Below are positions 14,638 to 34,498 of a stretch of DNA of 64,000 bases, in pieces (within the stretch, counting starts at the first letter, position 1; the number at the start of each line of letters is the position of its first letter). The notes beneath the pieces were generated by a model. The model searched no databases and was not told where the DNA came from. It saw nothing but the letters and a program-made list of their open reading frames with translations. Source of the stretch: Desulfuromonadales bacterium (GTDB taxonomy: Bacteria > Desulfobacterota > Desulfuromonadia > Desulfuromonadales > BM103); assembly GCA_037383085.1 (NCBI GenBank), contig JARRPG010000001.1:53422-117421 (forward strand). Direction: 5' to 3'. Both the position numbers and the translations under genes were made by a program.

Positions 14638-15555
14638 TCAAACCCCGTCCTGATCCGGCTCGGGCAGCGGCGCGCGTGCCGATTGCTGGACGACCAGCCC
14701 GGCCACGATCAGAATCAGGCCGACGAAAGTCGCCGGCAGGATCTCTTCACCCACCAGGAGGTGTATAAAGACCAGGGAGAGAAACGGGGAGATGAAAATC
14801 AGATTGCTGATGCGGGCGGTGTTGCGGGTCTTCTTCAATGCCAGCAGCCAGAGCACGAAACAGAAGCCCATCTCGAAGGTGCCCACGTAGGCGGCACCGA
14901 GCAGACCCTGAACAGGCGGCCAACGGAGTTCTGCCGAAGCCAGATAGTAGAGAAGCACAAACGGAAAACCACACAGAAAGTTAATGAACAAGCCGACCAC
15001 AGGATCGCGCCGGTCGCGCGTATTGAAGATCCAGTACAAGGCCCAGATCACGGTGCTCGCAAGAGCCAGGAAAACGCCGAGCGGGCTGGTGAACGTGAGG
15101 CTGAAGGGCTGACCTTCGGTGGAGATGACCAGGACGCCACAATAGCTGATCAACAGCGCCAACCATTGCTGCCAGACAACTTTCTGCTTGAGCAGCGGCA
15201 CGGCCAACAGGGACAGGGTGATGGCCCAGGTGTAATTGAGCGGCTGAGCCTGTTGGGCAGGCAGCAGATCATAGGCCTTGAGCAGGACCAGGTAGTAGAG
15301 GAAAGGGTTGAGAAATCCGAGGCCAATCGAGAGCAGCAGATCCTGTCGCCGGCAGCGAAACACCTCACCGAACCTGCCCTGAATGACCAGGATCATGCCA
15401 AGCAAAACGGTTGTGAAAAAGCCTGAACAGAGGAGCAGTTCGATGGGACTGAGATAGCGGAGCGACAGTTTGAAGGCGGTGGCAATGGTCGACCAGAGCA
15501 ACACGGCGCTTAGACCGTACAGGGTGGCCTGACGTTCGTTGGACATGCGGTTCAT
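14638..15555 (-). CDS. DMT/EamA family transporter
   Basis: Ten-TM EamA pattern. Start moved to the ATG at 15555 (MNRMSNERQ...), which overlaps the upstream stop as ATGA. The ORF-track N-terminal extension is Arg/Gly-rich non-protein-like sequence. Confidence 0.8.
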   Translation of the reverse strand: MNRMSNERQATLYGLSAVLLWSTIATAFKLSLRYLSPIELLLCSGFFTTVLLGMILVIQGRFGEVFRCRRQDLLLSIGLGFLNPFLYYLVLLKAYDLLPAQQAQPLNYTWAITLSLLAVPLLKQKVVWQQWLALLISYCGVLVISTEGQPFSLTFTSPLGVFLALASTVIWALYWIFNTRDRRDPVVGLFINFLCGFPFVLLYYLASAELRWPPVQGLLGAAYVGTFEMGFCFVLWLLALKKTRNTARISNLIFISPFLSLVFIHLLVGEEILPATFVGLILIVAGLVVQQSARAPLPEPDQDGV

Positions 15556-16469
15556 CCCGGCAGTCTTCCCGGGGCCATCTCGGCGGTCCTGCGGCGCAGG
15601 CGACCGGCGCCGGCGAGAACTGCCAGACCGGAAAAGATCAGGACAATGCCGGTGACACTCAAGGAATTCATGCGTTCGCCCAGTACCAGCACCCCCAGCA
15701 GACCGGCGGTCAAGGGTTCGGCCAGACTCAGCGTGACGGCGGTGGCCACCGGCACCCTCTGCAGGCCGCGCGCAAACAGCCAGTAAGCCAGAGCGGCCGT
15801 GACGATGCCGAGGTGCAGAACCACCGTCAGGCTGCGCGGTTCTGCCAGCCAGGCAGTCTCGCGCCAAATCAGCAGCGGCGAAAGCATCAACGCTCCGACA
15901 CAGAAGACCACGGCGATCACGGCATCCGGACTGAACCTTTCCAGCAGACCTTTAATCACCAGAGTATAGGCGGCATAGGAAATGCCGGCGCCAATCGCCA
16001 GCAGAATGCCGAGTAAATCGACCCGGACATCCCCACCGCTGCTCAGCGTCAGGACAATGCAGCCGGCCAGGGCCAAACCGGTGGCCACAAACCACGGCCG
16101 TCCCGGTCGTTCGCCCCGGAACAGATAACCGAGCAGACCGCCGGCCACAGGAGCACTGCCGATACCGACGATGGTGCCTACGGCAACTCCGGTTTTGGCA
16201 ACCCCGGCAAAAAAGCAGACCTGGTAGAGGGCGGTGAACAAGGCGGCGATCAGGGTGACGCGCACCGGCCAACCGCTTAAGGGCAAGGTCCGCGATTGGG
16301 CCAGGATCAGGACCAGCAAAGCGACACCTCCCAGGGCCAGGCGCAGCGTACCGATCACCAGCGGATCAAAGCCTGCCGGAGCAAAGGCCTGCGCCGTCCC
16401 GGTCGTGCCCCACAACATGGCGGCCGACAGAACGAACCAGACACCGGTCTGGGGATGTTTTCCCGGCAT
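15552..16469 (-). CDS. DMT/EamA family transporter
   Basis: Start at the ATG at 16469 (MPGKHPQTGVWFVLSAAMLWGTTG...) with a GAAGGAGAAAAC RBS. Two EamA halves. Confidence 0.8.
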   Translation of the reverse strand: MPGKHPQTGVWFVLSAAMLWGTTGTAQAFAPAGFDPLVIGTLRLALGGVALLVLILAQSRTLPLSGWPVRVTLIAALFTALYQVCFFAGVAKTGVAVGTIVGIGSAPVAGGLLGYLFRGERPGRPWFVATGLALAGCIVLTLSSGGDVRVDLLGILLAIGAGISYAAYTLVIKGLLERFSPDAVIAVVFCVGALMLSPLLIWRETAWLAEPRSLTVVLHLGIVTAALAYWLFARGLQRVPVATAVTLSLAEPLTAGLLGVLVLGERMNSLSVTGIVLIFSGLAVLAGAGRLRRRTAEMAPGRLPG

Positions 16470-16479
16470 GTTTTCTCCT

Positions 16480-17802
16480 TCAGTTCGACTCAACCGAGAC
16501 GACAGCGCGCCGCCCCAGCCCGGCACAAGGCCAGCACAGATAAAGCATAGCCAGCAGGCGACCAACCACGTAGGAGAGTGCCGCGGCGGTGACGCCCGGA
16601 ATGGCCGAGTATAGTACAAACAGGGCCAGCAGCGTAAAAATTCCCAGCGCCTCGACGGCCGTGGCCAAAGAAACCGGCAAAGTGATGCCGGCATCGATCA
16701 GCAAGGCCCGCTGGTAGCCGATGGCCACGGTCAACGCCGGGAAAACCGCCATGATCTGCAGGGGAACCGCGGCCATGGCGGCCAGTTCGGGGGACAATCC
16801 GGAGAGCGTTGCAAACCAGAGTTGATTGAGAGGGGTGAAGGCGATCAGCGACAAGGCCCCGCCCAGGCCGAGACCAAGATACAGGGCAAAGCGCCCGACC
16901 AGCGGCCGGTTTTCCGGGGCCCCCTTCAACATGGTGATGGCAACCTCCGGAAAAGACAAGCCCAAAGCGCGAAACAGAAACGTCACCGCGTAGAGAACTG
17001 GCATGATGGCCAATGAAGCCAAGGGCCGATGCCCGTGACCGAGGAAGAACGTCACCACCGGGTGGACGCTCAAGCCGATCAGGGGTGTCATGGCCAGCGG
17101 CAGATAAAATCGCCAGAGTGTTGCATGATTCGGCATCAGCGCAACATCCGATGACTCGGCCAGTGACTGCCTGATAGCCTGCCGCGCCAGCCAACGCGTC
17201 GCCAGCGCTTCCGCCGTGACGCCGGCACTCAGGGCACAGGCGCCAAGGCTGGCCCCGGGGAGCATCTCGAACCGCCAGAGAATCCCGGCCGTCGCAGCCA
17301 TGGCCAGCAGGCGCACGGTGGTGCCGACCGCCACCCGGCCGGGCTGGTGATGGGCGATCAGAACACCCTGGTAAAAACGTCGCAGGCCGATCGCCGCCGG
17401 CCAGGGCAGCAGCAGAGCCAGGGCACGATGCACCTGCTGCGCCACCTCCGGCGAGAGATTCAACAGATGGCCGGTCAGCGGATCAAAAATCGATGGCAGC
17501 AGCAGGAGGATCAGCAGCAGCGTTACGGCGGCGCAGAGCATCAGCGAAAAAGACCGCAGCCGCAGGTAGTCTGAGCGCTCCCGGGCCAGCCGCGTCGCAG
17601 CGCTCAAGAGCATAATGACGGGAGCTTCGGTGATTAGTCCAAACGCGAAGGCGATCCCGTAGGCCGCCAGGTTGATCGCGCTGTCGGCCATCCGGGCGAT
17701 CACAGCCGCCAGGAACGGCCCTTCCACGGCCATCATCAGCCAGGTGGCGGCCAGCGGCCACCAGAGCCGATACATCGTTTTCAGAGTTGCCGGCTGGGTC
17801 AT
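16480..17802 (-). CDS. MATE/MOP-superfamily-like polytopic membrane protein
   Basis: 440 aa, about 12 TM helices. N-terminal LWWPLAATWLMMAVEGPFLAAVIAR resembles MatE-type exporters. Function not assignable. Confidence 0.55.
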   Translation of the reverse strand: MTQPATLKTMYRLWWPLAATWLMMAVEGPFLAAVIARMADSAINLAAYGIAFAFGLITEAPVIMLLSAATRLARERSDYLRLRSFSLMLCAAVTLLLILLLLPSIFDPLTGHLLNLSPEVAQQVHRALALLLPWPAAIGLRRFYQGVLIAHHQPGRVAVGTTVRLLAMAATAGILWRFEMLPGASLGACALSAGVTAEALATRWLARQAIRQSLAESSDVALMPNHATLWRFYLPLAMTPLIGLSVHPVVTFFLGHGHRPLASLAIMPVLYAVTFLFRALGLSFPEVAITMLKGAPENRPLVGRFALYLGLGLGGALSLIAFTPLNQLWFATLSGLSPELAAMAAVPLQIMAVFPALTVAIGYQRALLIDAGITLPVSLATAVEALGIFTLLALFVLYSAIPGVTAAALSYVVGRLLAMLYLCWPCAGLGRRAVVSVESN

Positions 17803-17910: not shown

Positions 17911-18825
17911 TTAAACCGACTTCCTTTTCATACCAAGCATCTGTCTCAGGGCGTGTTGGGCAATGCTCGGGTTCTCCTTCAGGCGGCGCTTCGAATAAGG
18001 CAGCCAGGATTTGCCGAAGGGCACATAAACCCGCAGGCGATGACCCTGGGCCACCAGCAGGTCGCGCAGTTCCGGGTCGACACCGAGCAGCATCTGAAAT
18101 TCATAGTCCTCGCGTTTCAGACCGTATTTCCGAATCAGTTGCAGCGACTCGAAGACCAGCTTTTCATCGTGCGTGGCAATGCCCACATAGGCCCCTTTTT
18201 CAAACATCAGGTCCAGGCAGCAGACAAAGCTGCGGTTGATGATTGCCATGTCCTTGTAGGCAATCTCGCGCGGCTCGTTGTAAATCCCCTTGCAGAGTCG
18301 GAAATGCAGCAGACCGTCACTTAAGGCTTCGATATCGGCGAGGGTGCGGCGCAGATACGACTGCAGCACCACGCCGACATGGCCGGGGAATTCCTCCCGC
18401 AGACGTCGGAAGAAGTCGAGGGTGTCGTCGGTACAGGGGTGATCTTCCATGTCGATCCGGACAAAATTGTTCCGTTCAGCTGCCAGCGTGACGATTTCGC
18501 GGATGTTTTCAAAAGCGAACTCCTTGTCGAGTTCGAGCCCCATCTGGGTCGGTTTCAACGACAGGTTGGCATCCAGCCCTTCCTTGTCGATGCCGCGCAG
18601 GATCTCCAGGCATTGATCCTTGAAATAGGTGGCTTCCTCTTTCGTTTTGATGAATTCACCGAGGATATCGATTGTCGCCATCATCCCTTTGCTGTTGAAA
18701 TCCCGGGTGACGGCGACCGCGTCCTTGAGTTCCTCGCCGGCGATGTACCCTTTGGCGAAGAGGCCGACGATCGGCCCGGGAACATGCATGATGGTTTTCG
18801 AGACAAGCAGATTGAACAGGGACAT
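17911..18825 (-). CDS. Proline dehydrogenase (monofunctional PRODH)
   Basis: TIM-barrel PRODH pattern (ATIDILGE..., VRIDMEDH..., VVLQSYLRRT, RLCKGIY, VGIATHD, FQMLLGV). The ATG at 18825 is preceded by GGAGG, which lies inside the GTG-extended ORF. Confidence 0.85.
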   Translation of the reverse strand: MSLFNLLVSKTIMHVPGPIVGLFAKGYIAGEELKDAVAVTRDFNSKGMMATIDILGEFIKTKEEATYFKDQCLEILRGIDKEGLDANLSLKPTQMGLELDKEFAFENIREIVTLAAERNNFVRIDMEDHPCTDDTLDFFRRLREEFPGHVGVVLQSYLRRTLADIEALSDGLLHFRLCKGIYNEPREIAYKDMAIINRSFVCCLDLMFEKGAYVGIATHDEKLVFESLQLIRKYGLKREDYEFQMLLGVDPELRDLLVAQGHRLRVYVPFGKSWLPYSKRRLKENPSIAQHALRQMLGMKRKSV

Positions 18826-18887
18826 GGCGTCCTCCACAAGGAAATGTTAAGGGTGGGCGGACAGCCAGCGCTGTCCGCCCCGCATTA

Positions 18888-20531
18888 TCACTCGGCGTCC
18901 ATGAACGGGTAGGCAAAGTCCGTCGGCGGCACGAAGGTCTCCTTGACGGTGCGCGGCGAGACCCAGCGCAGCAGGTTGGTGTAGGAACCGGCCTTGTCAT
19001 TGGTCCCGGAGGCACGCCCACCGCCGAAAGGCTGCTGGCCGACGACGGCGCCGGTCGGCTTGTCGTTGATGTAGAAATTGCCGGCAGCATTTTCGAGCTT
19101 GGCCATGGCCAGTGAAACCGCCATACGCTCGGTGGCGAAGACCGCACCCGTCAAGGCGTAGGGCGAGGTCCGGTCGCAGAGGTCCAGGGTTTCTTCGTAT
19201 TGGTCATCCTCATAGACGTAAAGGGTCAGCACCGGACCGAAGATCTCCTCTGCCATGGTGCGAAAGTCCGGGGTCTTGGCCAGGATCACGGTCGGCTCGA
19301 TGAAGTAGCCGGTGCTGTCATCGTAGTTGCCGCCGAGAATGATTTCCGCATCGTCGGACTGCTTGGCATCATCGATATAGGCCGTGATGTCCGCGAAGGC
19401 ACCTTTGTCGATGACCGCACTGAAGAAACAGGAGAAATCGTCGGTCGGCCCCATCTTGATGCGACCCACCTGATCCTCAAGGCCGGCGCGGACGTCGCTC
19501 CAGATCGACTGCGGAATGTAGGCGCGCGAAGCGGCCGAACATTTCTGACCCTGGTATTCGAAGGCCCCCCGGACCAGCGCGGTGACCAGCGCGTCGATGT
19601 CGGCGCTCTTGTGCGCAAAGACAAAGTCCTTGCCACCGGTCTCGCCGACGATCCGTGGATAGGACTTGTACTTGGCGATGTTGTTGCCGATCGTCTGCCA
19701 CATGTCCTGGAAGACCGCGGTGCTGCCGGTGAAATGCACCCCGGCAAATTCAGGACTGTCCATGCAGAGCGGTCCAACCACCGATCCCGGCCCCGGGACG
19801 AAGTTGATGACGCCATCGGGCAACCCGGCTTCCTGCAGGATCCTCATGAACAGGTAAGGAGTGTAGACGCAGGACGAAGCCGGCTTCCAGAGCGCCACGT
19901 TGCCCATGATCGCCGGCGCTGTCGGTAGGTTGCCGGCAATCGCGGTGAAATTGAACGGTGTCACGGCGAAGACGAATCCTTCCAGGGGCCGCTGCTGGAC
20001 GTAATTCCAGACGCCCTTCGAATTGTGCAGCGGCTGCTCCTGGTAGATCTGCTGGGCAAAGTAGACGTTGAAGCGCAGGAAATCGATCAGCTCGCAGGCG
20101 GCATCGATCTCTGCCTGAAAAGCGGTTTTGCCCGTCGAGAGCATGCTGCCGGCATTGATCAGGTAACGGTATTTGGTACTGAGCAGCTCGGCGGCCTTGA
20201 GAAAGATGCCGGCGCGTTCTTCCCAGCGCAGGGTCTTCCATTCCTGCTGGGCCGCGACGGCGGCATCGATCGCCATCTGCACTTCTTTCGGACCGGCCAT
20301 GTGATATTCGGCCAGCACATGCTGATGGTTGTGCGGCATCACCACTTTGCCGAGCTTACCGGTGCGGACCTCCTTGCCGCCGATGATCAGCGGGATCTCG
20401 ATTTTTTTGCCCTGGGTTTCGGCCAGAGCAGCCTTGAGTTTTTCCCGCTCCGGGCTGCCGGGGGCATAATTGTAAACCGGTTCGTTCTGTGGGAAAGGAA
20501 CCTTGATGGTGGCGTTGTTCACTAAGTTCAT
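18888..20531 (-). CDS. pruA: L-glutamate gamma-semialdehyde (delta-1-pyrroline-5-carboxylate) dehydrogenase
   Basis: 547 aa from the ATG at 20531 (GGGAG RBS). ALDH superfamily with the catalytic region ETGGKD / YQGQKCSAASR typical of P5CDH, and N-terminus MNLVNNATIKVPFPQNEPVYNYAPGSPER. Confidence 0.85.
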   Translation of the reverse strand: MNLVNNATIKVPFPQNEPVYNYAPGSPEREKLKAALAETQGKKIEIPLIIGGKEVRTGKLGKVVMPHNHQHVLAEYHMAGPKEVQMAIDAAVAAQQEWKTLRWEERAGIFLKAAELLSTKYRYLINAGSMLSTGKTAFQAEIDAACELIDFLRFNVYFAQQIYQEQPLHNSKGVWNYVQQRPLEGFVFAVTPFNFTAIAGNLPTAPAIMGNVALWKPASSCVYTPYLFMRILQEAGLPDGVINFVPGPGSVVGPLCMDSPEFAGVHFTGSTAVFQDMWQTIGNNIAKYKSYPRIVGETGGKDFVFAHKSADIDALVTALVRGAFEYQGQKCSAASRAYIPQSIWSDVRAGLEDQVGRIKMGPTDDFSCFFSAVIDKGAFADITAYIDDAKQSDDAEIILGGNYDDSTGYFIEPTVILAKTPDFRTMAEEIFGPVLTLYVYEDDQYEETLDLCDRTSPYALTGAVFATERMAVSLAMAKLENAAGNFYINDKPTGAVVGQQPFGGGRASGTNDKAGSYTNLLRWVSPRTVKETFVPPTDFAYPFMDAE

Positions 20532-20638
20532 GACGTCTCCCTTTCGTGTTAAGAGCCAATATCCTGTCGGATGATCGTGATCTGCATAGTCTTGCCGGTT
20601 GCTGAAAACCCGGCTCCATAATGCTGACAGACTGAATG

Positions 20639-20655
20639 AGCAAACAGGATGCCAA
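20639..20655 (-). promoter_or_regulatory. Sigma-54 (-24/-12) promoter for pruA and the proline dehydrogenase gene
   Basis: The minus strand reads TTGGCATCCTGTTTGCT, i.e. TGGCAT-N5-TTGCT with exact GG-to-GC spacing of 12. About 105 nt upstream of the pruA ATG. Confidence 0.75.
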
Positions 20656-20863
20656 GCGGATGCAGGTTTGCCCAAAGGGGTGCTGGTTGTGCGGTGAGAG
20701 GCCCCTCCCCCGCGCCATAAGGCCATTACAAGATACTTATTTTATTAGCTTTTTTAGAATATAGCGCTGTTTGCAGAGGACTTCGGGAAAATTCGCTCAG
20801 GGCCGCTCGAGGAGAAAATGCCTGTCGCCATCAGAAGAGCACAGGCGTCTTCAAAAATTAATT

Positions 20864-20991: not shown

Positions 20992-21906
20992 TCAGCCTCC
21001 TACCGTGGCCCGCAAGCCATGCTCACCGAACACCCGGATCGCCCGCTCGAGACCTTCCGGACCCGGTTCGTGGATGGCGTGCAGATCGCGATGCTGCCCC
21101 AGCTTGGCATCTTTGCCTCGAGCCACATCATGATAGGGAAGCAGGTTCACCGCCTTGCGCGAACCGGCCAGACCGGCCACAAAATCGGCGATCCCGGCCA
21201 GGTTCTCGGCATCATCATTGACACCACCGAGCAGGGGCACACGCACCTGAATCGCGACACCGGTCGCGGCCAGGGCCTCGAGGTTGTTGAGAATCAGCGA
21301 ATTATCGACCCCGGTGTAGCGGCGATGCCGGTCGGTGTCGATCAGCTTCAGGTCATAGAGGAAAAGGTCGGCATGCCGGGCCACCTCGAGCAGGGTCGCG
21401 GTTTTGACATAGCCTGAGGTGTCAATAGCGCGGTGAATGCCGCGCGCACCGCAGCGGTCAAGGAGTTCGATCAGAAAATCCGGATAAAGCAAGGGCTCGC
21501 CGCCCGAGAACGTCACCCCCCCAGCGGACTGATCGAAAAAAGGCCGCTCCTTTTCGATCACAGCCAGGATCTCTTCGACGGCCATCGGCCGCCCCGAAAT
21601 TTCCGTCGCCAGGGCCGGACAGGCGGCTGCGCAGGCACCGCAGAGAGTACACACCGCGTGATCGGTGACCACCCCCTCGGCGTTGAGCTCACAGGCCTGT
21701 CGGGGACAGACCCGGCAACACTCCCGGCAGCCGATGCACTTGGCCGCGGTGAAGAGCTTCTGCGGGCGGGCGGAAATGCTTTCGGGGTTGTGACACCACT
21801 GGCAATTCAGCGGACAGCCCTTGAAGAAGACCGTGACGCGAATGCCCGGACCGTCGTTGATCGCGTAACGCTTGATATCGAAGATGAGGGGCTCTTGCAT
21901 GATCAC
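20992..21906 (-). CDS. Glycyl-radical enzyme activating protein (radical SAM, with ferredoxin-like insert)
   Basis: CPLNCQWCHNPE (the CxxxCxxC radical-SAM cluster) plus two extra Cys clusters, CIGCRECCRVCP and CTLCGACAAACP. The GGEPLL SAM motif is present. The start is ambiguous (GTG at 21906 or ATG at 21900). Confidence 0.9.
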   Translation of the reverse strand: MIMQEPLIFDIKRYAINDGPGIRVTVFFKGCPLNCQWCHNPESISARPQKLFTAAKCIGCRECCRVCPRQACELNAEGVVTDHAVCTLCGACAAACPALATEISGRPMAVEEILAVIEKERPFFDQSAGGVTFSGGEPLLYPDFLIELLDRCGARGIHRAIDTSGYVKTATLLEVARHADLFLYDLKLIDTDRHRRYTGVDNSLILNNLEALAATGVAIQVRVPLLGGVNDDAENLAGIADFVAGLAGSRKAVNLLPYHDVARGKDAKLGQHRDLHAIHEPGPEGLERAIRVFGEHGLRATVGG

Positions 21907-22080: not shown

Positions 22081-24531
22081 TTAAAAAGATTCGTTCTCGG
22101 TCCGTTCGATCACTTCCTGCTGCAGGTCGGCGTTCATGTCGTTGAAGTAATCGCTGTAACCGGCCATGCGCACCAGCAGGTCCTTGTAATCTTCCGGGGT
22201 CTCCTGCGCCGCCTTGAGGGTTGCCGTGTCGACGATATTGAACTGGATGTGGTGGCCCCCCAGATTGAAGTAGCTGCGAATCAGTTGGCCAAGCCGGGTG
22301 ATGTCCTCGTCGCGTTTGAGCAGACTCGGCAGAAAACGTTGGTTGAGCAGCGTTCCGCCCGACAGGGTATGGTCCAGCTTGGTCAGGGAACGAATCACCG
22401 CCGAAGGCCCATGAGTGTCCGCTCCATGGGACGGTGAGGTGCCGTCGGAAATCGACTTGCCGGCCAGCCGGCCGTTCGGGGTCGCCCCGGTGACCTTGCC
22501 GAAATAGATATGACAGGTCGTCGAGAGCATGTTGAGATGGAAACTCTCCCCCTTGATGTTCGGCTTGCCGTCGATCGCCTGCAGCAGGTCCCGGTAGATC
22601 TGCAGGGCGATGTCGTCGGCATAGTCGTCGTCGTTGCCAAAAAACGGTGTCTTGTTGAGCACGGTCTGGCGCAGGAACGCATCTTCGGCAAAATTGTCGG
22701 CAAGAGCCTTCAGGAGGCGTTCCATGCTGAAGGTCTGCGCCTCGAAAACATGTTTTTTCAGGACCGCGAGGCTATCGGTGGTCGTCCCCAGCCCGGTGCA
22801 CTGGATATAGTTGGTGTTGTAACGCGGTCCGGCATCGTAATAATCCCGTCCCTTGCTGATGCAGTCCTCGATCACGACGGACAGGAAAGGGGCCGGAGCG
22901 TACTTGGCGAACATGCGGTCAATGTAGTTGCTGACCCGAATCTTGGTGTCGACAATAAAATTCAGCTGGCGCCGAAAGGCGTCGTAAAGCGCCTCGAAGG
23001 AGGTAAACTGGCGCGGGTCGCCGGTCTCCATGCCGGCCTTTTTGCCGGTGACCGGATCGGTCCCGTTGTTGAGGGTGATCTCGAGAATCTTCGGCACGTT
23101 CAGGTAACCGGTCAGGATGTAGGCTTCCTTGCCGAAGGCGCCGACCTCGATGCAACCACTGCAGCCCCCCTCGCGCGCATCCTGCAGCGACTTGCCCTGG
23201 CGCAGCAACTCGAGAACGTAGACATCGGGATTGAAAACCGACGGGTAACCATGGCCCTGGCGAATCACCCGACAGGCCGCCTCCAGAAAGCGGTCGGGCG
23301 TCTTGCTGCTGACGTGCGCCGAGTTGCCGGGCTGCAGGATATGCAACTCCTCGACTACCTCGAGCATCAGATAAGACACCTCGCTGACCCCGTCCTTGCC
23401 ATCGCCGGTGATGCCGCCGATGTTGATGTTGGTAAAGTCGTTGTAGGTGCCGCTTTCCCGTGCCGTGATGCCGACCTTGGGCGGCGCCGGATGGTTGTTG
23501 ACCTTGATCCAGAAGCAGCAGAGCAACTCCTTGGCCTGCTCGCGCGTCAAGGTTCCGGCGGCGATCTCCGCCCTGTAGAACGGGGCCAGGTGCTGGTCGA
23601 AATGGCCCGGATTCATGGCATCCCAACCGTTCAGTTCCGTGATCGTACCGAGGTGCACGAACCAGTACATCTGGATCGCTTCGTGAAAGGTCTGCGGCGC
23701 ATGGGCCGGAACCCGGCGGCAGACTTCGGCGATCGTCCGCAGCTCGGCGGCGCGCTGCGGATTTTGTTCATCAGCGGCCCGTTGTTCGGCCAACGCGGCA
23801 TGCCGCTCGGCAAAGAGGATCACGGCGTCACAGGAGACATCCATGGCCCGCAATTCTTCGAGCTTGTCGGTCGCTTCCGGGTCGTTGAGAAAATCCAGGC
23901 GAACGATCTGGTCGGCGATCTGCCGCTTGAAGTCGCGCATTCCCAGACGGTAGATCTTGCCGTCCAGGGCGGTATGCCCGGGGGCCCGCTGCTCCATGAA
24001 TTCGGTGAACAAACCGGCCTCATAGGCCGCCTGCCACTCCGCAGGAACATGGTTGAAGATGCGCTCGCGAATCGTCCGGCCCTGCCAGAAGGGGATCACT
24101 TCGCGGGCATAAATGGCGATATCCTCCTCGCTGATCGTATAACGCTGCTGCTCACGGCTGTTGAGGACGCGAAAGTCTTCCACGCTGTGACAGGTCAGCT
24201 CGGGGAAGGTCGGCACCGCTTTCGGCCGCGGCCCGCGTTCGCCGACAATCAGCTCATCCTCACCGATGTAGATCGTTTTCCTGCGACAGTGATCGAGGAA
24301 GTTCAGAGCGCGCAGCATCGGCGTTGAATACTTGCCGTCATTCTCCCGGTAGAAGGCGGTCTCATGAAGCGCACGCTCGATCGACAGGCTCGGTTCGGTT
24401 TCGACGCTCAGCTTGCGCAGACGCTGGATACGGGCATTCATACCGGGCCCGATCGGATTGGGTTTGGAGGGATAAAAATTGCCTTCACTGGCCGCTTTGC
24501 GCTGCGGCATCGCTGTTGTTTCCAGGGTCAT
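22081..24531 (-). CDS. hypD: Glycyl radical enzyme, PFL2/eliminase family; best fit is trans-4-hydroxy-L-proline dehydratase (HypD-like)
   Basis: C-terminal glycyl-radical motif VRMAGYSDYF and Cys loop SGCIEVG. Motifs FTEFMEQRAPGHT, ELNGWDA, KVGITARESGTYNDF and AYILTGY contain F178, H186, D304, S360, F366, C460, E462 and Y476. These all sit at a constant +26 offset from the HypD active-site residues I recall (F152, H160, D278, S334, F340, C434, E436, Y450). The start is uncertain (ATG at 24531, 24510 or 24441). Confidence 0.8.
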   Translation of the reverse strand: MTLETTAMPQRKAASEGNFYPSKPNPIGPGMNARIQRLRKLSVETEPSLSIERALHETAFYRENDGKYSTPMLRALNFLDHCRRKTIYIGEDELIVGERGPRPKAVPTFPELTCHSVEDFRVLNSREQQRYTISEEDIAIYAREVIPFWQGRTIRERIFNHVPAEWQAAYEAGLFTEFMEQRAPGHTALDGKIYRLGMRDFKRQIADQIVRLDFLNDPEATDKLEELRAMDVSCDAVILFAERHAALAEQRAADEQNPQRAAELRTIAEVCRRVPAHAPQTFHEAIQMYWFVHLGTITELNGWDAMNPGHFDQHLAPFYRAEIAAGTLTREQAKELLCCFWIKVNNHPAPPKVGITARESGTYNDFTNINIGGITGDGKDGVSEVSYLMLEVVEELHILQPGNSAHVSSKTPDRFLEAACRVIRQGHGYPSVFNPDVYVLELLRQGKSLQDAREGGCSGCIEVGAFGKEAYILTGYLNVPKILEITLNNGTDPVTGKKAGMETGDPRQFTSFEALYDAFRRQLNFIVDTKIRVSNYIDRMFAKYAPAPFLSVVIEDCISKGRDYYDAGPRYNTNYIQCTGLGTTTDSLAVLKKHVFEAQTFSMERLLKALADNFAEDAFLRQTVLNKTPFFGNDDDYADDIALQIYRDLLQAIDGKPNIKGESFHLNMLSTTCHIYFGKVTGATPNGRLAGKSISDGTSPSHGADTHGPSAVIRSLTKLDHTLSGGTLLNQRFLPSLLKRDEDITRLGQLIRSYFNLGGHHIQFNIVDTATLKAAQETPEDYKDLLVRMAGYSDYFNDMNADLQQEVIERTENESF

Positions 24532-24612
24532 GACCAGACGACTTTCTTTCAGTTAAGAATTTGGCGACGAACAGGCACCATTGTTCAGTTTACTGTGCCA
24601 ACCCGCTGCAGG

Positions 24613-24628
24613 ACAAGCACGGTGCCAA
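24613..24628 (-). promoter_or_regulatory. Degenerate sigma-54-like -24/-12 element upstream of the GRE
   Basis: The minus strand reads TTGGCACCGTGCTTGT. The -24 TGGCAC is perfect and the spacing is correct, but -12 is TTGT rather than TTGC. About 85 nt upstream of the 24531 ATG. Confidence 0.35.
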
Positions 24629-24868
24629 CAGGCGGACCGTTGAACCGCCTGAAAAGATTCCACCTGGTCACAGAATTGAGCAAGAAGGATACCAAAGCGA
24701 TGTTTTCTGAAGATATTTACAAGAGCTTGAAATCAAAGCCTTTTAAGTAACGGAAGCGGAAATTTCGCGGGCGGCCGCCGGAGGATTGCTATTCACTGCA
24801 GAATCGATAATTCAGGAAGGAATAAATCGGCCCCTGGCCATGACGCGCAAGAGCTTTCTGATCAGAGT

Positions 24869-25207
24869 TCAACCCAGCTTGGCGCCGTTCGGCACCGGTC
24901 GTTCGGGAATCGCTATGACGACGGAATTGTCGTCGCGATAAAAACCGGTCAGCAGGAACTCGGAGCGCATCGGCCCGATCTGTTTGGGTGGGAAATTGAC
25001 CACACCGATGATCTGCCGGCCGACCAATTCCTCCCGGTTGTAGTGCACCGTAATCTGCGCACTGGCCCTGAGAACACCGATTTCGGTGCCGAAATCAGCG
25101 GTGACGATATAGGCCGGCTTGCGCGCTTGCGGGAAGTCCTCGACTGCGAGGACTGTTCCGACCCGCAACTCGACGGCGGCAAAATCCTGCCAGGAGATGT
25201 TCTGCAT
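24869..25207 (-). CDS. CsaA/YgjH-like tRNA-binding (OB-fold) domain protein
   Basis: [33 protein letters not shown]...[19 protein letters not shown] is the tRNA_bind/CsaA signature. The ATG at 25207 has a GGAG RBS. Confidence 0.75.
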
Positions 25208-25220
25208 CAGAGTCTCCAAT

Positions 25221-26657
25221 CTAGCTTTTTTGCGCATCGGTGCTGCGGTATTTGATCCCGTACTTATGGAGTTTACGCGCCACGGTCGGCTGGCTCATGC
25301 CGAGAGCCCGGGCGATCGCCTGCTGCCTGTGATGGTGCTTGCTGACCTCGGTCAGGACGCGCTTTTCCACCGCCTCGAGAATCTGGGTCATGGTCATATT
25401 TTCGGGGCAGGCGTTCAAGGGCAGGCCCGTGCCGTCGTCCACCGCGGCCAACACATCCTGCGGCAGGTCGCTGCTATCGATCACCTCGGTGTCCGTCATC
25501 ACCACCAGGCGTTCACAGATGTTCATCAACTCACGCACGTTGCCGGGATAATCGTATTGCACCAGCGTGTCGAAGGCTGCGGTCGTCAGTCGCTTGGTGG
25601 TTTTGGCGCGGCTGGAAAAGTAATCCAGGTAACTGCGGATCAGCGGCACCAGGCATTCCCGGCGTTCGCGCAGTGGCGGGACCCGGAGCGGCACGACGCT
25701 CAGCCGGTAATAGAGGTCGGCACGGAACTCTTTGCGCTCCACCAGGGCATCCAGATCGCGATTGGTCGCCGCCAGGACGCGCACGTCGAAGCGTTGGCTT
25801 CGGGTCGCCCCCAACCGGGTGACCGCACCATCTTCCAAAAAGCGCAGCAACTTGACCTGTGAGGCCAGCGGCAGCTCGGCAATTTCATCGAGAAACAAGG
25901 TCCCGCCGGCAGCCAGCTCGAATTGCCCGGGCTTGCTGCTCGTCGCCCCGGTGAAGGCGCCGCGCTCGTAACCGAACAACTCGGCTTCGATCAAGGTCTC
26001 CGGAATCGCCCCGCAATTGATCTTGATCAGGGGACGCCCGGAACGGCCCGAGTTCTCATGGATCATATCGGCGATCAGCCCCTTGCCAACGCCCGATTCA
26101 CCAAGGATCAAAACGGTCGAATCGACCTCACTGACCTTGAGCGCCTGGCGGATCGCCTTGACCATGCAGGGACTTCTGGCAATCATCGGCTGCTCGGCAA
26201 ACCGTTCCTGCTGCAATTCCAGGATCTGATGCCGATAGCGATCACCGATCGCCTGCTGCTCCTCGAGCTGCCGCTGCAAACGATCGATTTCGGTGATATC
26301 GCGCTCGCTGACGACCACCCGGATGAGATCGCCGGCATCATCGAATACCGGCGTGGCGGTCGAGATGAGTTTGCGACCGAAGCGATTCTCCTGCAGCAGG
26401 CTGACCGGACTGCGATTTTTGATCGCTTCCAGGGCCGCGGAGGGCAAAATCAGCAACCCCTCCTGGGCGGCGTCGAGGTAGTCGCGGCCGATCAACTGGG
26501 CGGCGGAGGCATGATTGATGCGTTCCGATGCCGGGTTGACACGCAAGATGCGACCGCTGCCGTCACAGACGAACAAGCCGTCGGAGGACGAATCGATGAT
26601 GGCATCATGCTCCCAAGTCAGTTCCTGGGTTGGCCTGTCCATAGGTTGTTCCTTCAA
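25221..26657 (-). CDS. Sigma-54-dependent transcriptional activator (PAS - AAA+ - Fis-type HTH), here called EBP1
   Basis: PAS ([13 protein letters not shown]...VNPASERI). AAA+ with Walker A GESGVGKG, the GAFTGA sigma-54 contact loop, and [14 protein letters not shown]-terminal [27 protein letters not shown]. Confidence 0.9.
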
Positions 26658-27534: not shown

Positions 27535-28263
27535 CTACTGCTTTTTGCCGAGGTAGGCCTCCTGGACTTTTTCCGAGGCCAGCAGTTCGGCGGACGTTCC
27601 GGAGAGGGCGATTTTACCGACATCGAGTACATAACCACGGTCGGCCAGCTTGAGTGCCGCCTTGGCATTCTGCTCCACCAGCAAAACCGTGACACCGCTG
27701 TCGGCCACCTCTTTGATCTGTTTGAAAATGGCCTTGACCAGAATCGGCGCAATGCCAAGGGACGGCTCGTCCAGCAGCAGCATCTCCGGGTTGCACATCA
27801 GGGCCCGGCCGATCGCCAGCATCTGCTGTTCACCGCCCGAGAGCGTTCCCGCCAATTGCTTGCGTCGCTCTTCGAGCCGCGGGAAGAGGTCGTACACCCA
27901 TTGCAGGGTTTTGCGATCGACCTTGCTGCGGCTGAAAGCCCCGAGCATTAGGTTCTCCTCGACGGTGAGGATGCCGAACACCCGGCGGCCCTCGGGGGAA
28001 TGACTGATGCCCAGTTTGACGATCTTATGTGCCGGCATTTGGGTCAATTCGTGGCCCTTGAACATGATCGAGCCGGACTTGGCCTTGAGCAGCTGGCTGA
28101 TGGTGCGCATGGTGGTGGTCTTTCCCGCCCCGTTGGCACCGAGGATGGTAACGATTTCACCCTTGCGGACTTCGAGCGAGATCCCCTTGATGGCGGCAAT
28201 GCTGCCGTAGGATACCTCGAGATCCTTGATTTCGAACAAGACATCCTTATTCATCATCGTCAT
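27535..28263 (-). CDS. livF: Branched-chain/hydrophobic amino-acid ABC transporter ATP-binding protein (LivF-like)
   Basis: Walker A GANGAGKTT, signature LSGGEQQML, Walker B LLLDEPS. Confidence 0.88.
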   Translation of the reverse strand: MTMMNKDVLFEIKDLEVSYGSIAAIKGISLEVRKGEIVTILGANGAGKTTTMRTISQLLKAKSGSIMFKGHELTQMPAHKIVKLGISHSPEGRRVFGILTVEENLMLGAFSRSKVDRKTLQWVYDLFPRLEERRKQLAGTLSGGEQQMLAIGRALMCNPEMLLLDEPSLGIAPILVKAIFKQIKEVADSGVTVLLVEQNAKAALKLADRGYVLDVGKIALSGTSAELLASEKVQEAYLGKKQ

Positions 28264-29026
28264 CCTCGCTTCCCAGGTAGGCTTCGATCACGGCCGGGTT
28301 CTTCTGGATTTCTTCCGGTGTGCCCTCGGCGATCGTCTTGCCGAAATTCAGAACCGTCAGATAATCGGTCACTTCCATGACCATGTCCATGTCATGTTCG
28401 ATCAGCAGAATGGTGACCCCACGGTCGCGGATCTTGAAAATCGTCTCCAGCAGATCCAGGGTCTCCTTGTCGTTCAGCCCCGCCGCCGGTTCGTCAAGAA
28501 TCAACAGGGTGGGGTCAACCGCCATCGCCCGGGCCATTTCGACTCGCCGTTGAATGCCGTAAGGCAGACTGGCCACCGGCGTCGCGGCGAACTCGCTCAG
28601 ACTGAAGAAGTCCAGCTGTTCGGCGACCTTCTGCCAATTCTCGCGTTCGTCCCGCTTCGAACCGGGCGTATGGACAATGCCGTGCCACCAGCCCTGCTTA
28701 CTCTTGATATGGCGGCCGCTCATGATGTTTTCCGCCACCGACATCTGGCTGAAGAGGCGAATCGTCTGGAAGGTGCGGACGATGCCACGGTCAACGATCT
28801 GGTAGGGGGTCAGGCCGCGAATCTCCTCACCGCGCCATTTGACCGAGCCCTCCTCGGACTTGTAGATGCCGGTAATACAGTTGAACACGGTCGTCTTGCC
28901 GGCACCGTTGGGGCCAATAATGCCGTAGATCTGGCCTTCCTTGACCTCCAGGTTGAGGGTGTCGACAGCGGTCAGACCACCAAAGCGTTTGGTGACATCG
29001 GTCAGAATCAGTTGATTAGGCGCCAT
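28247..29026 (-). CDS. livG: Amino-acid ABC transporter ATP-binding protein (LivG-like)
   Basis: GPNGAGKTT, LPYGIQRRVEMARAM, LLILDEPAAG. Overlaps livF by 17 nt. Confidence 0.88.
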   Translation of the reverse strand: MAPNQLILTDVTKRFGGLTAVDTLNLEVKEGQIYGIIGPNGAGKTTVFNCITGIYKSEEGSVKWRGEEIRGLTPYQIVDRGIVRTFQTIRLFSQMSVAENIMSGRHIKSKQGWWHGIVHTPGSKRDERENWQKVAEQLDFFSLSEFAATPVASLPYGIQRRVEMARAMAVDPTLLILDEPAAGLNDKETLDLLETIFKIRDRGVTILLIEHDMDMVMEVTDYLTVLNFGKTIAEGTPEEIQKNPAVIEAYLGSEDDDDE

Positions 29027-29972
29027 GGTTCGCTTCCTTGATCAAGAATTTGGGAATTTTGCCGAAGGTTGCCGGCCAGATGCCGCGCGGCCGCAGAATC
29101 ATCGCCAGGATCATGGCAAACCCGAAGATGAAAAATCGCCAGGTGGCAAACTCGCGGAAGATCTCCGGCAGAACGAACATGACGAACACCCCGAGCAGGA
29201 TTCCCGGGATCGAGGAGCCGCCGACCAGGACAATACTGAAGAACAGCACCGACTGGATAAACTCGAAGGCCTCTGGACTGACGGCCGCATACTGGGTGGC
29301 GTAGACGGTCCCCGCCAGGCCGGCGATGCCGGCCCCGAGGCCGAAGGCGAAGATCTTGTAGACCCGGGTATTGATGCCGATACTTTCGGCGGCCAGAAAA
29401 TCCTCCCGCAGGTAATGCAAAGCCCGACCGGCCTTGCTCTTTTCCAGATTGCGCATCACCCAGAGCGTCACCAGCATGACGACGAAGGCGAAGTAGTAGA
29501 CCGCCACCTGGCTGGTCAGCTGCCAGCCGAAAAAAGACAAGGGATCGAGACCGAAAATGCCGTTCGGGCCGCCGGTCACCCCACCGAGATTGTTCTGCAG
29601 AACCTGGACGAAGACGATATTGAAACCGATCGTCACCACCAGCAGATAATCGCCGCGCAGGTGGACGATCGGTCCGGCCAGCAGGATGCCGAAGAGTGCC
29701 GGGATCAGGATCGCCAGGGGCACCGTCGCCAGGATCGGCCAGCCGAACTGATGGTTGAGAATCGCCGTGATATAGGCGCCCATGCCGAAGAAGAGCGCCT
29801 GTCCCATGTTGAACATGCCGGCCTTGCCGAGAATGATGTCCTGGGACAGGGCCACCACGGTGAAGATCAGAAAGGTGATCGCCACCGCCTGCCAGCGTGG
29901 ATTGAGCAGATGCGGCAATACCGCCATGACCACCAGAAAAATCGGCAACGCATAGGGTTGTAGTTTTTTCAT
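29016..29972 (-). CDS. livM: Amino-acid ABC transporter permease (LivM-like)
   Basis: 318 aa polytopic protein with the LivM-type sequence GQALFFGMGAYITA. Confidence 0.85.
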   Translation of the reverse strand: MKKLQPYALPIFLVVMAVLPHLLNPRWQAVAITFLIFTVVALSQDIILGKAGMFNMGQALFFGMGAYITAILNHQFGWPILATVPLAILIPALFGILLAGPIVHLRGDYLLVVTIGFNIVFVQVLQNNLGGVTGGPNGIFGLDPLSFFGWQLTSQVAVYYFAFVVMLVTLWVMRNLEKSKAGRALHYLREDFLAAESIGINTRVYKIFAFGLGAGIAGLAGTVYATQYAAVSPEAFEFIQSVLFFSIVLVGGSSIPGILLGVFVMFVLPEIFREFATWRFFIFGFAMILAMILRPRGIWPATFGKIPKFLIKEANHGA

Positions 29973-30868
29973 CAGACTTTCTCCGCCACCCGCTCACCGA
30001 GTATCCCGGTGGGACGTACGATCAGAATCAGGATCAACATGATAAAGGTAAAGGCATCAGCCCAGGTACTCGAGACATACCCGGCGATAAACGCGTTGAA
30101 GAGACCGAGCAGCATGCCGCCGAGCATGGCCCCGGGGATGTTGCCGATGCCGCCGAGAATTGCTGCGATGAACGCGTAGAGACCATACTGCCAGCCCATG
30201 TTGAACGTGATGCCACGATAGTAAAGGCCGATGAACAGGCCGCCGACGGCGCCCAGCGAGGAGCCGATAATGAAGATCAGGGCAATGACGCTGTTGACAT
30301 TGATCCCCATCAGCCGCGCCGCATCCTGGTCGATCGAACTGGCACGGATCGCCGCCCCCATGCGGGTTTTTTCGACAAAGACATAGAGGGCAACCATCAG
30401 GACCAGGGAGATGACCAGGATCAGGACCTGGATCAGGCTGATCACCACACCACCGAAGTCCCAGTAAACCTGCGGCACCAGTTCGGGGAAAATTTTCATG
30501 CGCGGGCCCCAGATCAGCATAATGCCATTCTGAATGACCAGCGAGGCACCGAGGGCCGAGACAACCGCCGACAGGCGGGGCGCTTCCCGCAAGGGGCGGT
30601 AGGCCACCCGTTCCAGGATCACCCCGATGCAGGCCATAATGGCTGCGGACAGCAGGAAGATCACGATCACCGAGAAGAGTGAGGTCGCCTGTCCCATCAC
30701 TTGGGTGTAGATGGTCAGACCGACAAAGGCCGAAGCCGCGACCATGTCACCATGGGCGAAGTTGATCAGCTTCATGACGCCGTAGACCATGGTGTAGCCG
30801 AGCGCCACCAGGGCGAACATACTGCCGATCGTCAAACCGTTTGCCAGCTGTTGCAGAAAGATATCCAT
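29972..30868 (-). CDS. livH: Amino-acid ABC transporter permease (LivH-like)
   Basis: Start at the ATG at 30868 (MDIFLQQLANGLTIGSMFALVALGYTMVYG, the canonical LivH N-terminus) with an AGGAG RBS. The ORF-track extension is rejected. Confidence 0.88.
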   Translation of the reverse strand: MDIFLQQLANGLTIGSMFALVALGYTMVYGVMKLINFAHGDMVAASAFVGLTIYTQVMGQATSLFSVIVIFLLSAAIMACIGVILERVAYRPLREAPRLSAVVSALGASLVIQNGIMLIWGPRMKIFPELVPQVYWDFGGVVISLIQVLILVISLVLMVALYVFVEKTRMGAAIRASSIDQDAARLMGINVNSVIALIFIIGSSLGAVGGLFIGLYYRGITFNMGWQYGLYAFIAAILGGIGNIPGAMLGGMLLGLFNAFIAGYVSSTWADAFTFIMLILILIVRPTGILGERVAEKV

Positions 30869-31014
30869 GAAACCGCTCCTGCTGTCCGCACTGTTGGTAC
30901 GGCGGATAGGACAACTGCCTGTCTCAGACACCAGGGAAGGAGATGTTTCTCCCTCTCCTTCGCTCGCGTCCGCGGGCAGGAGAGCCCGAGAGATCTGGTG
31001 AAACCGGAGGAAGA

Positions 31015-31039
31015 CGGGGGGAGCGCTGCGCTCCCCCCG
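31015..31039 (-). terminator. GC-rich hairpin (attenuator or mRNA-stabiliser) between livK and livH
   Basis: CGGGGGGAGCG-ctg-CGCTCCCCCCG, an 11-bp stem 25 nt after the livK stop. The T-run is weak, so termination is probably partial or the hairpin protects the 3' end. Confidence 0.45.
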
Positions 31040-31063
31040 TTGACGCATCAGATGCGGATGGTG

Positions 31064-32182
31064 TTACTGCACATACTCCTGAGCGTAGGAGCCGTCGGCC
31101 TGGATCTTCTTGACCACGTAGGCGCCGCCGATGCGGTTGCCGTCCTTGGCAAAGGCAATCGGTCCGGTAATACCGTCGATCGGCTCCATGCTATGCAGGT
31201 AATCGGCGACGGCCTTGGTATCGAAGCTCTTGGTCTGCTCGATGCCATAGATGAAGGCACGCATGCCGTCGATATTCATCAAACCCCAGATAGAGGGCGG
31301 CATTTCACCATATTTTGCCTGGTAGTCGGCGATGAAGGTTTTGGCGATCTCGTAGGGCAGCGCGTCCGGCGAAGGCACGTTGATAATGTAGGCCCCTTCC
31401 GCAGCGGAGCCGGCCAGCTTGACGAAATCCGGGTTGTCATTAGCGTCACCACCGATGAAATCAGCATTGATGCCGAGCGCTTTCTGCTGGGCGCGCAGCT
31501 GGCCACCGTCGGAGTAGTAACCGGCAAAGAAGATCACATCCGGGTTCTTGGACTTAATGTTGGTCAGCACCGGCGTGAAATTCTGCGAATCGGCTTTGAT
31601 CTTGTCACGCGAGACGACATTGCCGCCGAGCTTCTTGATCGCTTCCTCGGTGGCATTGCCGAGACCATCAGCGTAGGTCGAGAAATCGGACAGGACCACA
31701 ATGCGCTTGTAGCCTTTGACCTTGACCATGTACTCGGCGGCGAATTGGGCTTCGGCGCTGTTCGGGAAGGAGTTGCGGAAGAAGGTCCAATAGCCTTTTT
31801 CGGTCAGCGCATCAGCCGTGCCGTCTGAAGTCTGCAGGACACCGGCATCAAAATAGGTTTTTTGTGCGGCTTCGGCGCAGGTCGATGTGTAGGAGCCGAT
31901 CACCATCGTGACCCCCTTGTTGACCAGGTCCTTGGCACAGATGGCCGCAGCCATGGCGGTTCCCTGGTCATCACAGGTGATGACTTCGATCTGCTTGCCC
32001 AGCACGCCGCCGTTGGCGTTGACCTGCCCGGCGAGCAGCTTGACGCCATTGTCGATGCCTTGTCCTTCGTTGGCATAGCTGCCGGTAATCGGTGCCTGGA
32101 CACCGACCTTCAGGGTGTCAGCAGCGAATACCGTACCGGTAGCGAACAACACGGCCAGAAATGTTGCCAGATACTTTTTCAT
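31064..32182 (-). CDS. livK: Periplasmic amino-acid-binding protein (LivK/Peripla_BP_6 family)
   Basis: Signal peptide MKKYLATFLAVLFATGTVFA, then LKVGVQAPITGSYANEGQG...GGVLGKQIEV...DDQG. Confidence 0.88.
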   Translation of the reverse strand: MKKYLATFLAVLFATGTVFAADTLKVGVQAPITGSYANEGQGIDNGVKLLAGQVNANGGVLGKQIEVITCDDQGTAMAAAICAKDLVNKGVTMVIGSYTSTCAEAAQKTYFDAGVLQTSDGTADALTEKGYWTFFRNSFPNSAEAQFAAEYMVKVKGYKRIVVLSDFSTYADGLGNATEEAIKKLGGNVVSRDKIKADSQNFTPVLTNIKSKNPDVIFFAGYYSDGGQLRAQQKALGINADFIGGDANDNPDFVKLAGSAAEGAYIINVPSPDALPYEIAKTFIADYQAKYGEMPPSIWGLMNIDGMRAFIYGIEQTKSFDTKAVADYLHSMEPIDGITGPIAFAKDGNRIGGAYVVKKIQADGSYAQEYVQ

Positions 32183-32326: not shown

Positions 32327-32342
32327 AGCAAAGCTAATGCCA
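32327..32342 (-). promoter_or_regulatory. Sigma-54 (-24/-12) promoter for the liv-type operon
   Basis: The minus strand reads TGGCATTAGCTTTGCT (TGGCAT-N5-TTGCT, exact spacing). About 145 nt upstream of the livK ATG. Confidence 0.75.
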
Positions 32343-34327: not shown

Positions 34328-34357
34328 GGGCAATCTCCTTGTCAGAGGCTCCATCTT

Positions 34358-34390
34358 ATGCGGAACTGCATTATTTATGCAACAAGGAAT
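34358..34390. promoter_or_regulatory. Two further ATGC(A/G)(A/G)-N5-(C/A)AT motif copies in the EBP2 promoter/leader
   Basis: ATGCGGAACTGCAT (34358..34371) and ATGCAACAAGGAAT (34377..34390). On the minus strand they overlap a possible TTGCAT-N18-TAAGAT sigma-70 promoter. Confidence 0.4.
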
Positions 34391-34498
34391 TGTCGATGCC
34401 CGACACCCCGCCCGAAAACCGCTCTTTTCCATCGCTTGGCCAGACAGAATTGCCTCTCAGAAGTTGGTACATTCCTTGAACAGAAATGAGCGGATGTC

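Follow-up and report, generated by a model that had tools for sequence, protein, structure and literature searches.

The window examined here, a stretch of 64,000 nucleotides (nt) from a Desulfuromonadales bacterium (NCBI GenBank assembly GCA_037383085.1, contig JARRPG010000001.1, positions 53,422 to 117,421 of the forward strand), carries on its minus strand an open reading frame (ORF), 22081..24531, which is very probably (at a probability of roughly 0.92) hypD, the gene of trans-4-hydroxy-L-proline dehydratase, an oxygen-sensitive glycyl radical enzyme (GRE). The product is predicted to dehydrate trans-4-hydroxy-L-proline to delta-1-pyrroline-5-carboxylate (P5C), hydroxyproline being an amino acid of collagen. 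This protein of 816 amino acids (aa), counted from Met1 as in the deposited gene call, agrees with HypD in every sequence-based feature by which the enzyme is recognised.

In a phmmer search of all Protein Data Bank (PDB) sequences, residues 29-813 of the protein were paired with residues 23-807 of the 6vxc chain, the Clostridioides difficile HypD, with zero gaps and a score of 966 bits, the identity being 50.6% across the 785 gapless columns. The crystallised construct retained its N-terminal His tag (PMC7077986), and the chain has 809 aa, from which a tag of 20 residues was assumed by subtracting the 789 aa given for HypD in an earlier reading of this DNA (the original prediction). The assumption is supported by the fact that 15 of the 15 residues named in the literature land on the expected letters when the native number is taken as the query number minus 26. 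The NCBIfam equivalog for HypD, NF043068, gives 1171.3 bits against a cut-off of 1100 and is covered from profile position 2 to 783 of 784, with the runner-up model at 613.

The other solved GREs fall far below these values in the same search, with 496 bits for CutC, 486 for GDH and 393 for IslA, so that the maximum is 496 against 966 for HypD. The range for CutC and the B12-independent glycerol and propanediol dehydratases is 412-496 bits, at about 35% identity, while the enzymes acting on other hydroxyproline-type substrates reach 385 bits (HplG, 7vua) and 399 bits each (HpyG and HpzG, 8id1 and 8iof). The comparison with HypD, HplG, CutC, GDH and IslA that had been proposed from the sequence therefore places HypD at about twice the score of any other, and the protein is not nearer to HplG or to another eliminase.

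The active site tells the same story residue by residue. The original prediction had placed F178, H186, D304, S360, F366, C460, E462 and Y476 in correspondence with the HypD residues F152, H160, D278, S334, F340, C434, E436 and Y450, at a constant offset of +26. All eight are found at those positions in the translation, within the contexts FTEFMEQRAPGHT (from residue 175), NGWDA (301), ARESGTYNDF (357), SGCIEVG (458) and ILTGY (472), the HypD residues named there are those described in PMC7077986, and the eight identities and their single offset are backed by the gapless alignment to 6vxc. The same study, which combined structure and mutagenesis of the C. difficile enzyme, further names W277, D339, T645, R156, K326 and the radical glycine G765 (PMC7077986), and these six are also identical here. 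In total, 14 of the 15 active-site residues of the literature are conserved, the sole change being V435 to I461 in the middle of the CxE motif.

Along the minus strand, and with roles taken from PMC7077986 for the first three, these residues are encoded at 23974..24000 (F178-R182-H186, HypD F152, R156, H160), at 23620..23625 (W303-D304, HypD W277 and D278, the latter the proposed catalytic acid/base) and at 23434..23454 (S360 to D365-F366, HypD S334, D339, F340, for carboxylate and ring binding). The alignment further places the Cys loop G459-C460-I461-E462, the thiyl radical site corresponding to GC434-V-E436, at 23146..23157 and the glycyl radical motif R788-M-A-G791-Y792 at 22156..22170, the latter matching RVAG765Y of HypD and the general GRE motif RVxG[FWY]. 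The catalytic and acid-base set C460, E462, H186, D304 and D365 is identical to C434, E436, H160, D278 and D339, whose roles were established by mutagenesis (PMC7077986), and the set that binds hydroxyproline (S360, Y476, T671, F366, F178, W303, R182 and K352) is identical to S334, Y450, T645, F340, F152, W277, R156 and K326. The radical relay, G791 and C460, is likewise intact.

Given the 50.6% identity over 785 gapless columns, the residue match reflects homology and not chance, and the appropriate null is a different GRE family rather than a random sequence. Among 1.84 billion cluster representatives (clusters at 50% identity), that of HypD, P0121, reaches 961 bits with 52% identity, and the next full-length clusters score 658 (43%) and 578 (41%), followed by values of at most 525 (about 36%). 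When 130 representatives with lengths of 700 aa or more from the nearest GRE clusters were aligned with the query, the complete match of eight residues was found in two sequences only, both of the HypD cluster; one sequence had six of the eight, and the remainder had at most five, most often three.

The positions are not equally informative, since most other GREs have C434, E436 and H160, and F340 and Y450 are found in a minority of them. HypD is told apart by F152, D278 and S334, along with R156, W277, K326, D339 and T645, and the full HypD fingerprint is confined to HypD-cluster sequences among the cluster representatives examined. The same contrast separates HypD from CutC and the glycerol/propanediol dehydratases, which share the GRE 1,2-eliminase architecture, the C, E and G residues and often the equivalent of H160, but not D278, D339 or T645, and which usually have Phe in place of S334 (PMC7077986).

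As a separate observation on this neighbourhood of the family, the nearest non-HypD GRE cluster, whose representative (P0127) comes from outside the window, stands at 43% identity and 658 bits. It keeps R156, H160, D339, F340, Y450 and T645, but F152 and D278 are both replaced by Y, K326 by A and S334 by N. The cluster may act on a related substrate, and it appears to be uncharacterised.

The genes around hypD add a second line of evidence. Every gene between 32182 and 14638 is on the minus strand, and the order of transcription is a LivJ-type binding protein with LivHMGF, a universal stress protein, a sigma-54 activator, a CsaA-type protein, hypD, its activase, P5C dehydrogenase, proline dehydrogenase, a membrane protein and two EamA genes. 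The hypD activating enzyme, a radical SAM protein at 20992..21906, scores 329 bits with TIGR02494 (cut-off 174) and has a CX3CX2C motif at residue 31 and two CX2CX2C clusters; among those of the 80 related loci whose downstream sequence is available, nearly all have it after hypD. An HypD-type enzyme in a deltaproteobacterial host, as had been anticipated, is thus what the gapless alignment, the 14 conserved residues, the equivalog score, the two-fold gap in bit score, the activase and the nearest relatives all agree upon.

The third gene, at 18888..20531, encodes an L-glutamate gamma-semialdehyde (P5C) dehydrogenase (P5CDH) of 547 aa with 794 bits for TIGR01236 (cut-off 614) and the Pfam Aldedh domain. 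Its true start is the ATG at 20531, with a GGGAG ribosome-binding site before it. The mechanical ORF of 612 aa (18888..20726) is over-extended upstream, the extra stretch including a sigma-54-type promoter of the P5CDH gene itself. A monofunctional proline dehydrogenase (ProDH) follows at 17911..18837, with 107 bits for Pfam Pro_dh and 244 bits for NF045947, the latter below its cut-off. The full order from hypD through the activase, P5CDH, ProDH, the membrane protein and the two EamA genes recurs in two of the related loci (L002 and L053), two others (L001 and L003) have the same order as far as their contigs extend, and the linkage to P5CDH is found additionally in L012, L037 and L048.

In the mechanism proposed for this enzyme, the neighbouring activase would install a radical on G791, which would move to C460, and C460 would abstract a hydrogen from C5 of hydroxyproline. 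The proton transfers and the departure of the hydroxyl would involve D304 with H186, E462 and D365, while S360, Y476 and T671 would hold the carboxylate and F366, F178 and W303 would pack on the ring, as in the C. difficile enzyme. The P5C so formed would probably be oxidised to glutamate by the adjacent P5CDH, and proline would join the same pool of P5C through the adjacent ProDH. Hydroxyproline would, in this scheme, be a source of carbon, nitrogen and electrons and not a Stickland electron acceptor.

It may also be supposed that the protein is a true HypD whose P5C is reduced to proline, in a Stickland-type or biosynthetic manner, with pruA (the P5CDH gene) and putA serving only the catabolism of proline. 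Only the reductive route, linked to proC, has been characterised (PMC6219649), a promoter of its own precedes pruA here, and hypD and the activase occur without pruA in most of the related loci. No proC or prd genes are found among the annotated ORFs of the window (a few large ORFs were left unscanned), and the closest relatives have P5CDH and ProDH immediately downstream, in the same orientation. Desulfuromonadales are, moreover, respiratory anaerobes, a lifestyle that speaks against a Stickland-type fate, and reduction to proline is rather unlikely as the main use of the product. Oxidation to glutamate is also in line with a proposal of 2018, which led from P5C to glutamate in organisms where a dehydrogenase gene lies near hypD (PMC6219649).

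The comparison with C. difficile HypD (PDB 6VXC/6VXE; Levin et al. 2017; Backman et al. 2020, PMC7077986) sums up as the same fold, the same length of the catalytic body, the same Gly loop and GCxE Cys loop and an adjacent activase. The two systems differ in the neighbouring genes, with proC there and P5CDH and ProDH here, in the substitution of V435 by I, in the host (Clostridia there, Desulfuromonadales here), in the presence here of a sigma-54 promoter and a PrdR-like activator, and in an N-terminal extension of 26-30 residues with a motif of its own in the window enzyme.

This extension, codons 1-30 at 24442..24531 (minus strand), is without counterpart in C. difficile HypD. Residues 9-20 (24472..24507) form the motif P-Q/E-R-x-A/P-x-x-E-G-N-F/Y-Y, which is common to more than 100 homologs of 816-818 aa at 84-89% identity, and which is flanked by variable segments and then followed by a conserved GPGMN that contains Met31. 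It occurs upstream of the hypD body in 53 of 81 sequences (the 80 related loci and the window), among them those of Bacteroidales, Ignavibacteria, Verrucomicrobiota, Flavobacteriia and Saprospiraceae. All synonymous codons (four for P, six for R and four for G) are in use where these residues are conserved, from which it follows that the motif is under selection at the level of the protein. It is missing from 150 of 150 representatives of the neighbouring GRE clusters and, as said, from the C. difficile enzyme.

The motif decides the question of the start codon. The original prediction had considered a start at the internal Met31 (the ATG at 24441), which would leave 786 aa, and both the position and the length are correct. 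A start there is rejected, as no ribosome-binding site precedes Met31 and the 30 residues before it hold a coding motif conserved across phyla. A purine-rich GAAAGAAAG is located 11-19 nt upstream of Met1. A start at Met8 is possible and is disfavoured, the homologs beginning about 8 residues before the motif, which is consistent with Met1. Public gene calls in the clade vary between 786, 816-818 and 836 aa, and two NCBI records of close relatives begin at the equivalent of Met31 (786 aa).

Members of the long-form clade come from Desulfuromonadales, Bacteroidales, Ignavibacteria, Verrucomicrobiota and other groups, and the closest relatives of the window protein are in Desulfuromonadales. With hundreds of relatives at 77-89% identity, the clade is very large, tightly conserved and environmental, and some of its members are already named HypD by NCBI; the description of the protein as a divergent member of its family was thus overstated. 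The public labels of the relatives vary between 'formate C-acetyltransferase' (JGI, NCBI) and trans-4-hydroxy-L-proline dehydratase (NCBI, for several of the near ones).

Some observations on this clade stand by themselves. Two strains with an orthologue are Desulfuromusa kysingii DSM 7343 and Malonomonas rubra DSM 5091. The long-form HypD of Desulfuromonadales is 77-80% identical to that of Bacteroidales, Ignavibacteria, Verrucomicrobiota, Anaerolineae and Saprospiraceae (loci L018-L080), and the adjoining activase of the same loci is just 48-61% identical across these phyla. The cross-phylum identity of HypD could reflect either an unusually strong constraint or gene transfer. Within the window gene itself, an ORF of 605 aa (22510..24327, plus strand) lies wholly inside hypD on the opposite strand, and is most likely a shadow ORF of the sequence, which has about 59% G+C, and not a gene.

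Another reading of the extension would be that the protein is an HypD-like enzyme with a different substrate, such as trans-4-hydroxy-D-proline (as for HplG), N-methyl-cis-4-hydroxyproline (as for HpyG and HpzG) or that of some relative not yet known, and that the N-terminal peptide might alter the specificity. Several GREs acting on hydroxyproline derivatives are indeed known (HplG, HpyG and HpzG; 2026 review, PMC13450708), and the long-form clade, with its conserved motif foreign to the characterised enzyme, is known from sequence alone. The three enzymes share with the window protein the GRE fold, the CxE Cys loop and substrates of the hydroxyproline type, but their scores of 385-399 bits are to be set against 966 for HypD, and they are only 26-29% identical to the window protein in a structure-based alignment made with a low-confidence model. 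Each of the hydroxyproline-contacting residues known from structure and mutagenesis is identical to that of HypD, whereas the nearest non-HypD cluster already departs from it at F152, D278, K326 and S334. In four close relatives (L015, L016, L017 and L020), the motif is replaced by unrelated sequence, which makes a place for it in the catalytic core improbable. A different substrate is accordingly very improbable.

That the protein is a generic pyruvate formate-lyase (PFL) or an enzyme of the glycerol dehydratase type is hardly credible, in spite of the 'formate C-acetyltransferase' labels of close homologs and of a Pfam result limited to the PFL-like and Gly_radical domains (Gly_radical being precomputed for homologs), since the PFL equivalog TIGR01255 gives 138 bits against a cut-off of 994, E. 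coli PFL gives 103 bits, the glycerol dehydratase structure gives 486 bits, and the single-Cys GCxE loop of the eliminases is present along with the HypD-specific residues.

A number of points weigh against the identification as HypD in an oxidative pathway. The characterised enzyme is just 50.6% identical and lacks the N-terminal extension, and for the long-form proteins (816-818 aa) the function of HypD is assigned throughout the clade on sequence alone. The AlphaFold2 model of the enzyme, built from an alignment of 41 sequences that are all 84-89% identical, is poor, with a predicted local distance difference test (pLDDT) score of 61.5 overall and below 50 at the N-terminus and the active-site loops, and thus provides no independent structural check of the pocket and no information on the N-terminal peptide; 6vxc is still the top Foldseek match of this low-confidence model, a result given little weight. 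The deposited record of the exact protein (MEJ2469947.1) is labelled only 'MAG: glycyl radical protein'. The activase remains below the cut-off of the HypD-activase equivalog NF043069 (339.5 against 425), though NF043069 is its best equivalog. Finally, of the 80 related loci only some 7 link P5CDH and ProDH to hypD, so that the glutamate route, as suggested by synteny, would be specific to this clade.

The regulation of the locus appears to depend on sigma-54. About 150 nt upstream of hypD, a -24/-12 promoter of the sigma-54 type, TGGTATCCTTCTTGCT, is located at 24679..24694 with the spacing GG-N10-GC, and a second one, TGGCATCCTGTTTGCT, precedes the P5CDH gene at 20639..20654, both on the minus strand. 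A third was found by pattern matching before the livJ-type transporter gene (32327..32342, minus strand). The pattern TGGYAY-N5-TTGCW has four matches in the window where 0.33 would be expected, and three of these are the ones before hypD, pruA and livJ; the fourth, at 11206..11221 on the plus strand, is inside the ORF of an ActP-like symporter and may be due to chance.

The spacer of 337 nt upstream of hypD is poorly conserved in an alignment of five loci except for two blocks. The first is an invariant TTGGTA..TTCTTGCT with GG-N10-GC spacing, and the second is an A/T-rich dyad further upstream. The sigma-54 element is found upstream of hypD in 10 loci of the Desulfuromonadales type and in none from other phyla. 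The strict pattern is missing in Desulfuromusa kysingii, and a Malonomonas rubra locus (L007, from a metagenome-assembled genome) has the element. The element before hypD accordingly has the attributes of a predicted sigma-54-type promoter, namely the GG-N10-GC arrangement (-24 TGGCAC / -12 TTGCW), conservation and the presence of an enhancer-binding protein. Two further candidates, TGGCACCGTGCTTGT (24613..24627) and TGGCACAGTAAACTG (24586..24600), were rejected as sigma-54 promoters because the GC of the -12 element is missing and TGGCAC is not conserved.

A scan of the hypD upstream region for sigma-70 promoters found nothing, and a search of the whole window with Rfam gave no match, hence no known riboswitch or leader in the 5' untranslated region (UTR) of roughly 150 nt. 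Between the promoter and the hypD start (24585..24627, minus strand), the short blocks CTTGT and GTAAA[A/C]T are conserved in five loci; these could be a weak sigma-70 promoter or an element of the 5' UTR.

The conserved dyad TGAAT-N4-ATTC, together with a TGAATA half-site, constitutes a candidate binding site for the activator at 24788..24816 (minus strand). Its distance of about 100 nt upstream from the -24 element is usual for such sites. The dyad itself, at 24801..24814, is the only TGAAT-N5-7-ATTC site of the window, and it is present before hypD only and not before the other two sigma-54 promoters, for which reason an activator site shared by the three was discarded.

The enhancer-binding protein is encoded at 25221..26657 (minus strand; the deposited call has 473 aa from 26642), one of two sigma-54 activator genes in the window, the other being at 32585..34432. 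Its Pfam domains give a PAS-AAA+-HTH architecture, the same as in PrdR, the proline-responsive, sigma-54-dependent activator of the proline reductase operon of Clostridia, and PrdR (NF041552) is its best NCBIfam match, at 356 bits over profile positions 130-577. The two differ in that the score is far under the cut-off of 795, in that the first approximately 130 positions of the profile are missing, and in that the gene adjoins hypD and not prd genes. This PrdR-like activator is conserved upstream of hypD in L001, L002, L004 and L053. The expression of hypD would thus probably depend on sigma-54 and on the PrdR-like activator, and the cluster may be induced by proline or hydroxyproline.

Between the activator gene and hypD lies a gene of the CsaA type with a tRNA-binding domain (24869..25237, minus strand), which holds the same place in L001, L002 and L053 and has no obvious tie to hydroxyproline metabolism.

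The transport genes flank the cluster on both sides. Downstream of ProDH, an ORF at 16480..17802 (minus strand) encodes a membrane protein of 440 aa that has no match in Pfam, in NCBIfam or among the PDB sequences, searched both as a single sequence and as a profile at permissive thresholds. Its AlphaFold2 model is confident (pLDDT 89.8, predicted template-modelling score 0.88, from an alignment of 30 sequences), and the Foldseek matches are transporters of the MATE family and others of the MOP superfamily, with template-modelling scores of 0.70-0.78 and a probability of 1.0 at 13-17% identity, so that the model assigns to the protein a MATE/MOP-superfamily fold. At least 13 loci of the Desulfuromonadales type have a counterpart of this gene after hypD and the activase. 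Two genes of the EamA/DMT type come next, as in the window (14638..16694, minus strand), where their starts are uncertain, the listed ORFs overlapping.

On the upstream side, an amino-acid ABC importer of the LivJHMGF type occupies 27535..32182 (minus strand) under the sigma-54-type promoter already described, and the block of Liv, Usp and activator genes is linked to hypD in L002, L004, L010 and L012. The remainder of the window has ordinary chromosomal content, such as lon, trpS, asnS, larA and histidine kinases.

With regard to the function of the N-terminal peptide, targeting to a microcompartment was set aside, as no shell genes are found among the annotated ORFs of the window (not every ORF was scanned). 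A tentative suggestion is that the peptide may be a functional module that serves docking or regulation with the activase or with a partner consuming P5C, or that gates the substrate channel, and that the Desulfuromonadales enzyme may belong to an undescribed respiratory route from hydroxyproline and proline to glutamate, under sigma-54 control and with the Pfam-less MATE-fold transporter. This combination is possible and considerably less secure than the identification of hypD itself.

In relation to the literature, the hypD product is a typical member of a well-known family, and both its lineage and its gene context had been anticipated, HypD having already been reported in environmental Proteobacteria (PMC6219649). 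The locus illustrates a situation that had been predicted, not a new one, and no report of HypD in Desulfuromonadales or of a tested HypD/P5CDH pathway was found in the papers searched. What is modestly new is the N-terminal peptide of the long form, the control of the sigma-54/PrdR-like type and the family of MATE-fold transporters.

These results leave the chemistry of HypD, as it is known, unaffected, and they assign a specific function to a protein that had been deposited only as a glycyl radical protein. The public start-codon calls for the clade are in conflict (786 against 816-836 aa), and that the longer form is under selection is of importance for cloning. For the biology of the group, the locus would extend the anaerobic use of hydroxyproline to the metal- and sulfur-respiring Desulfuromonadales, probably by an oxidative route to glutamate.

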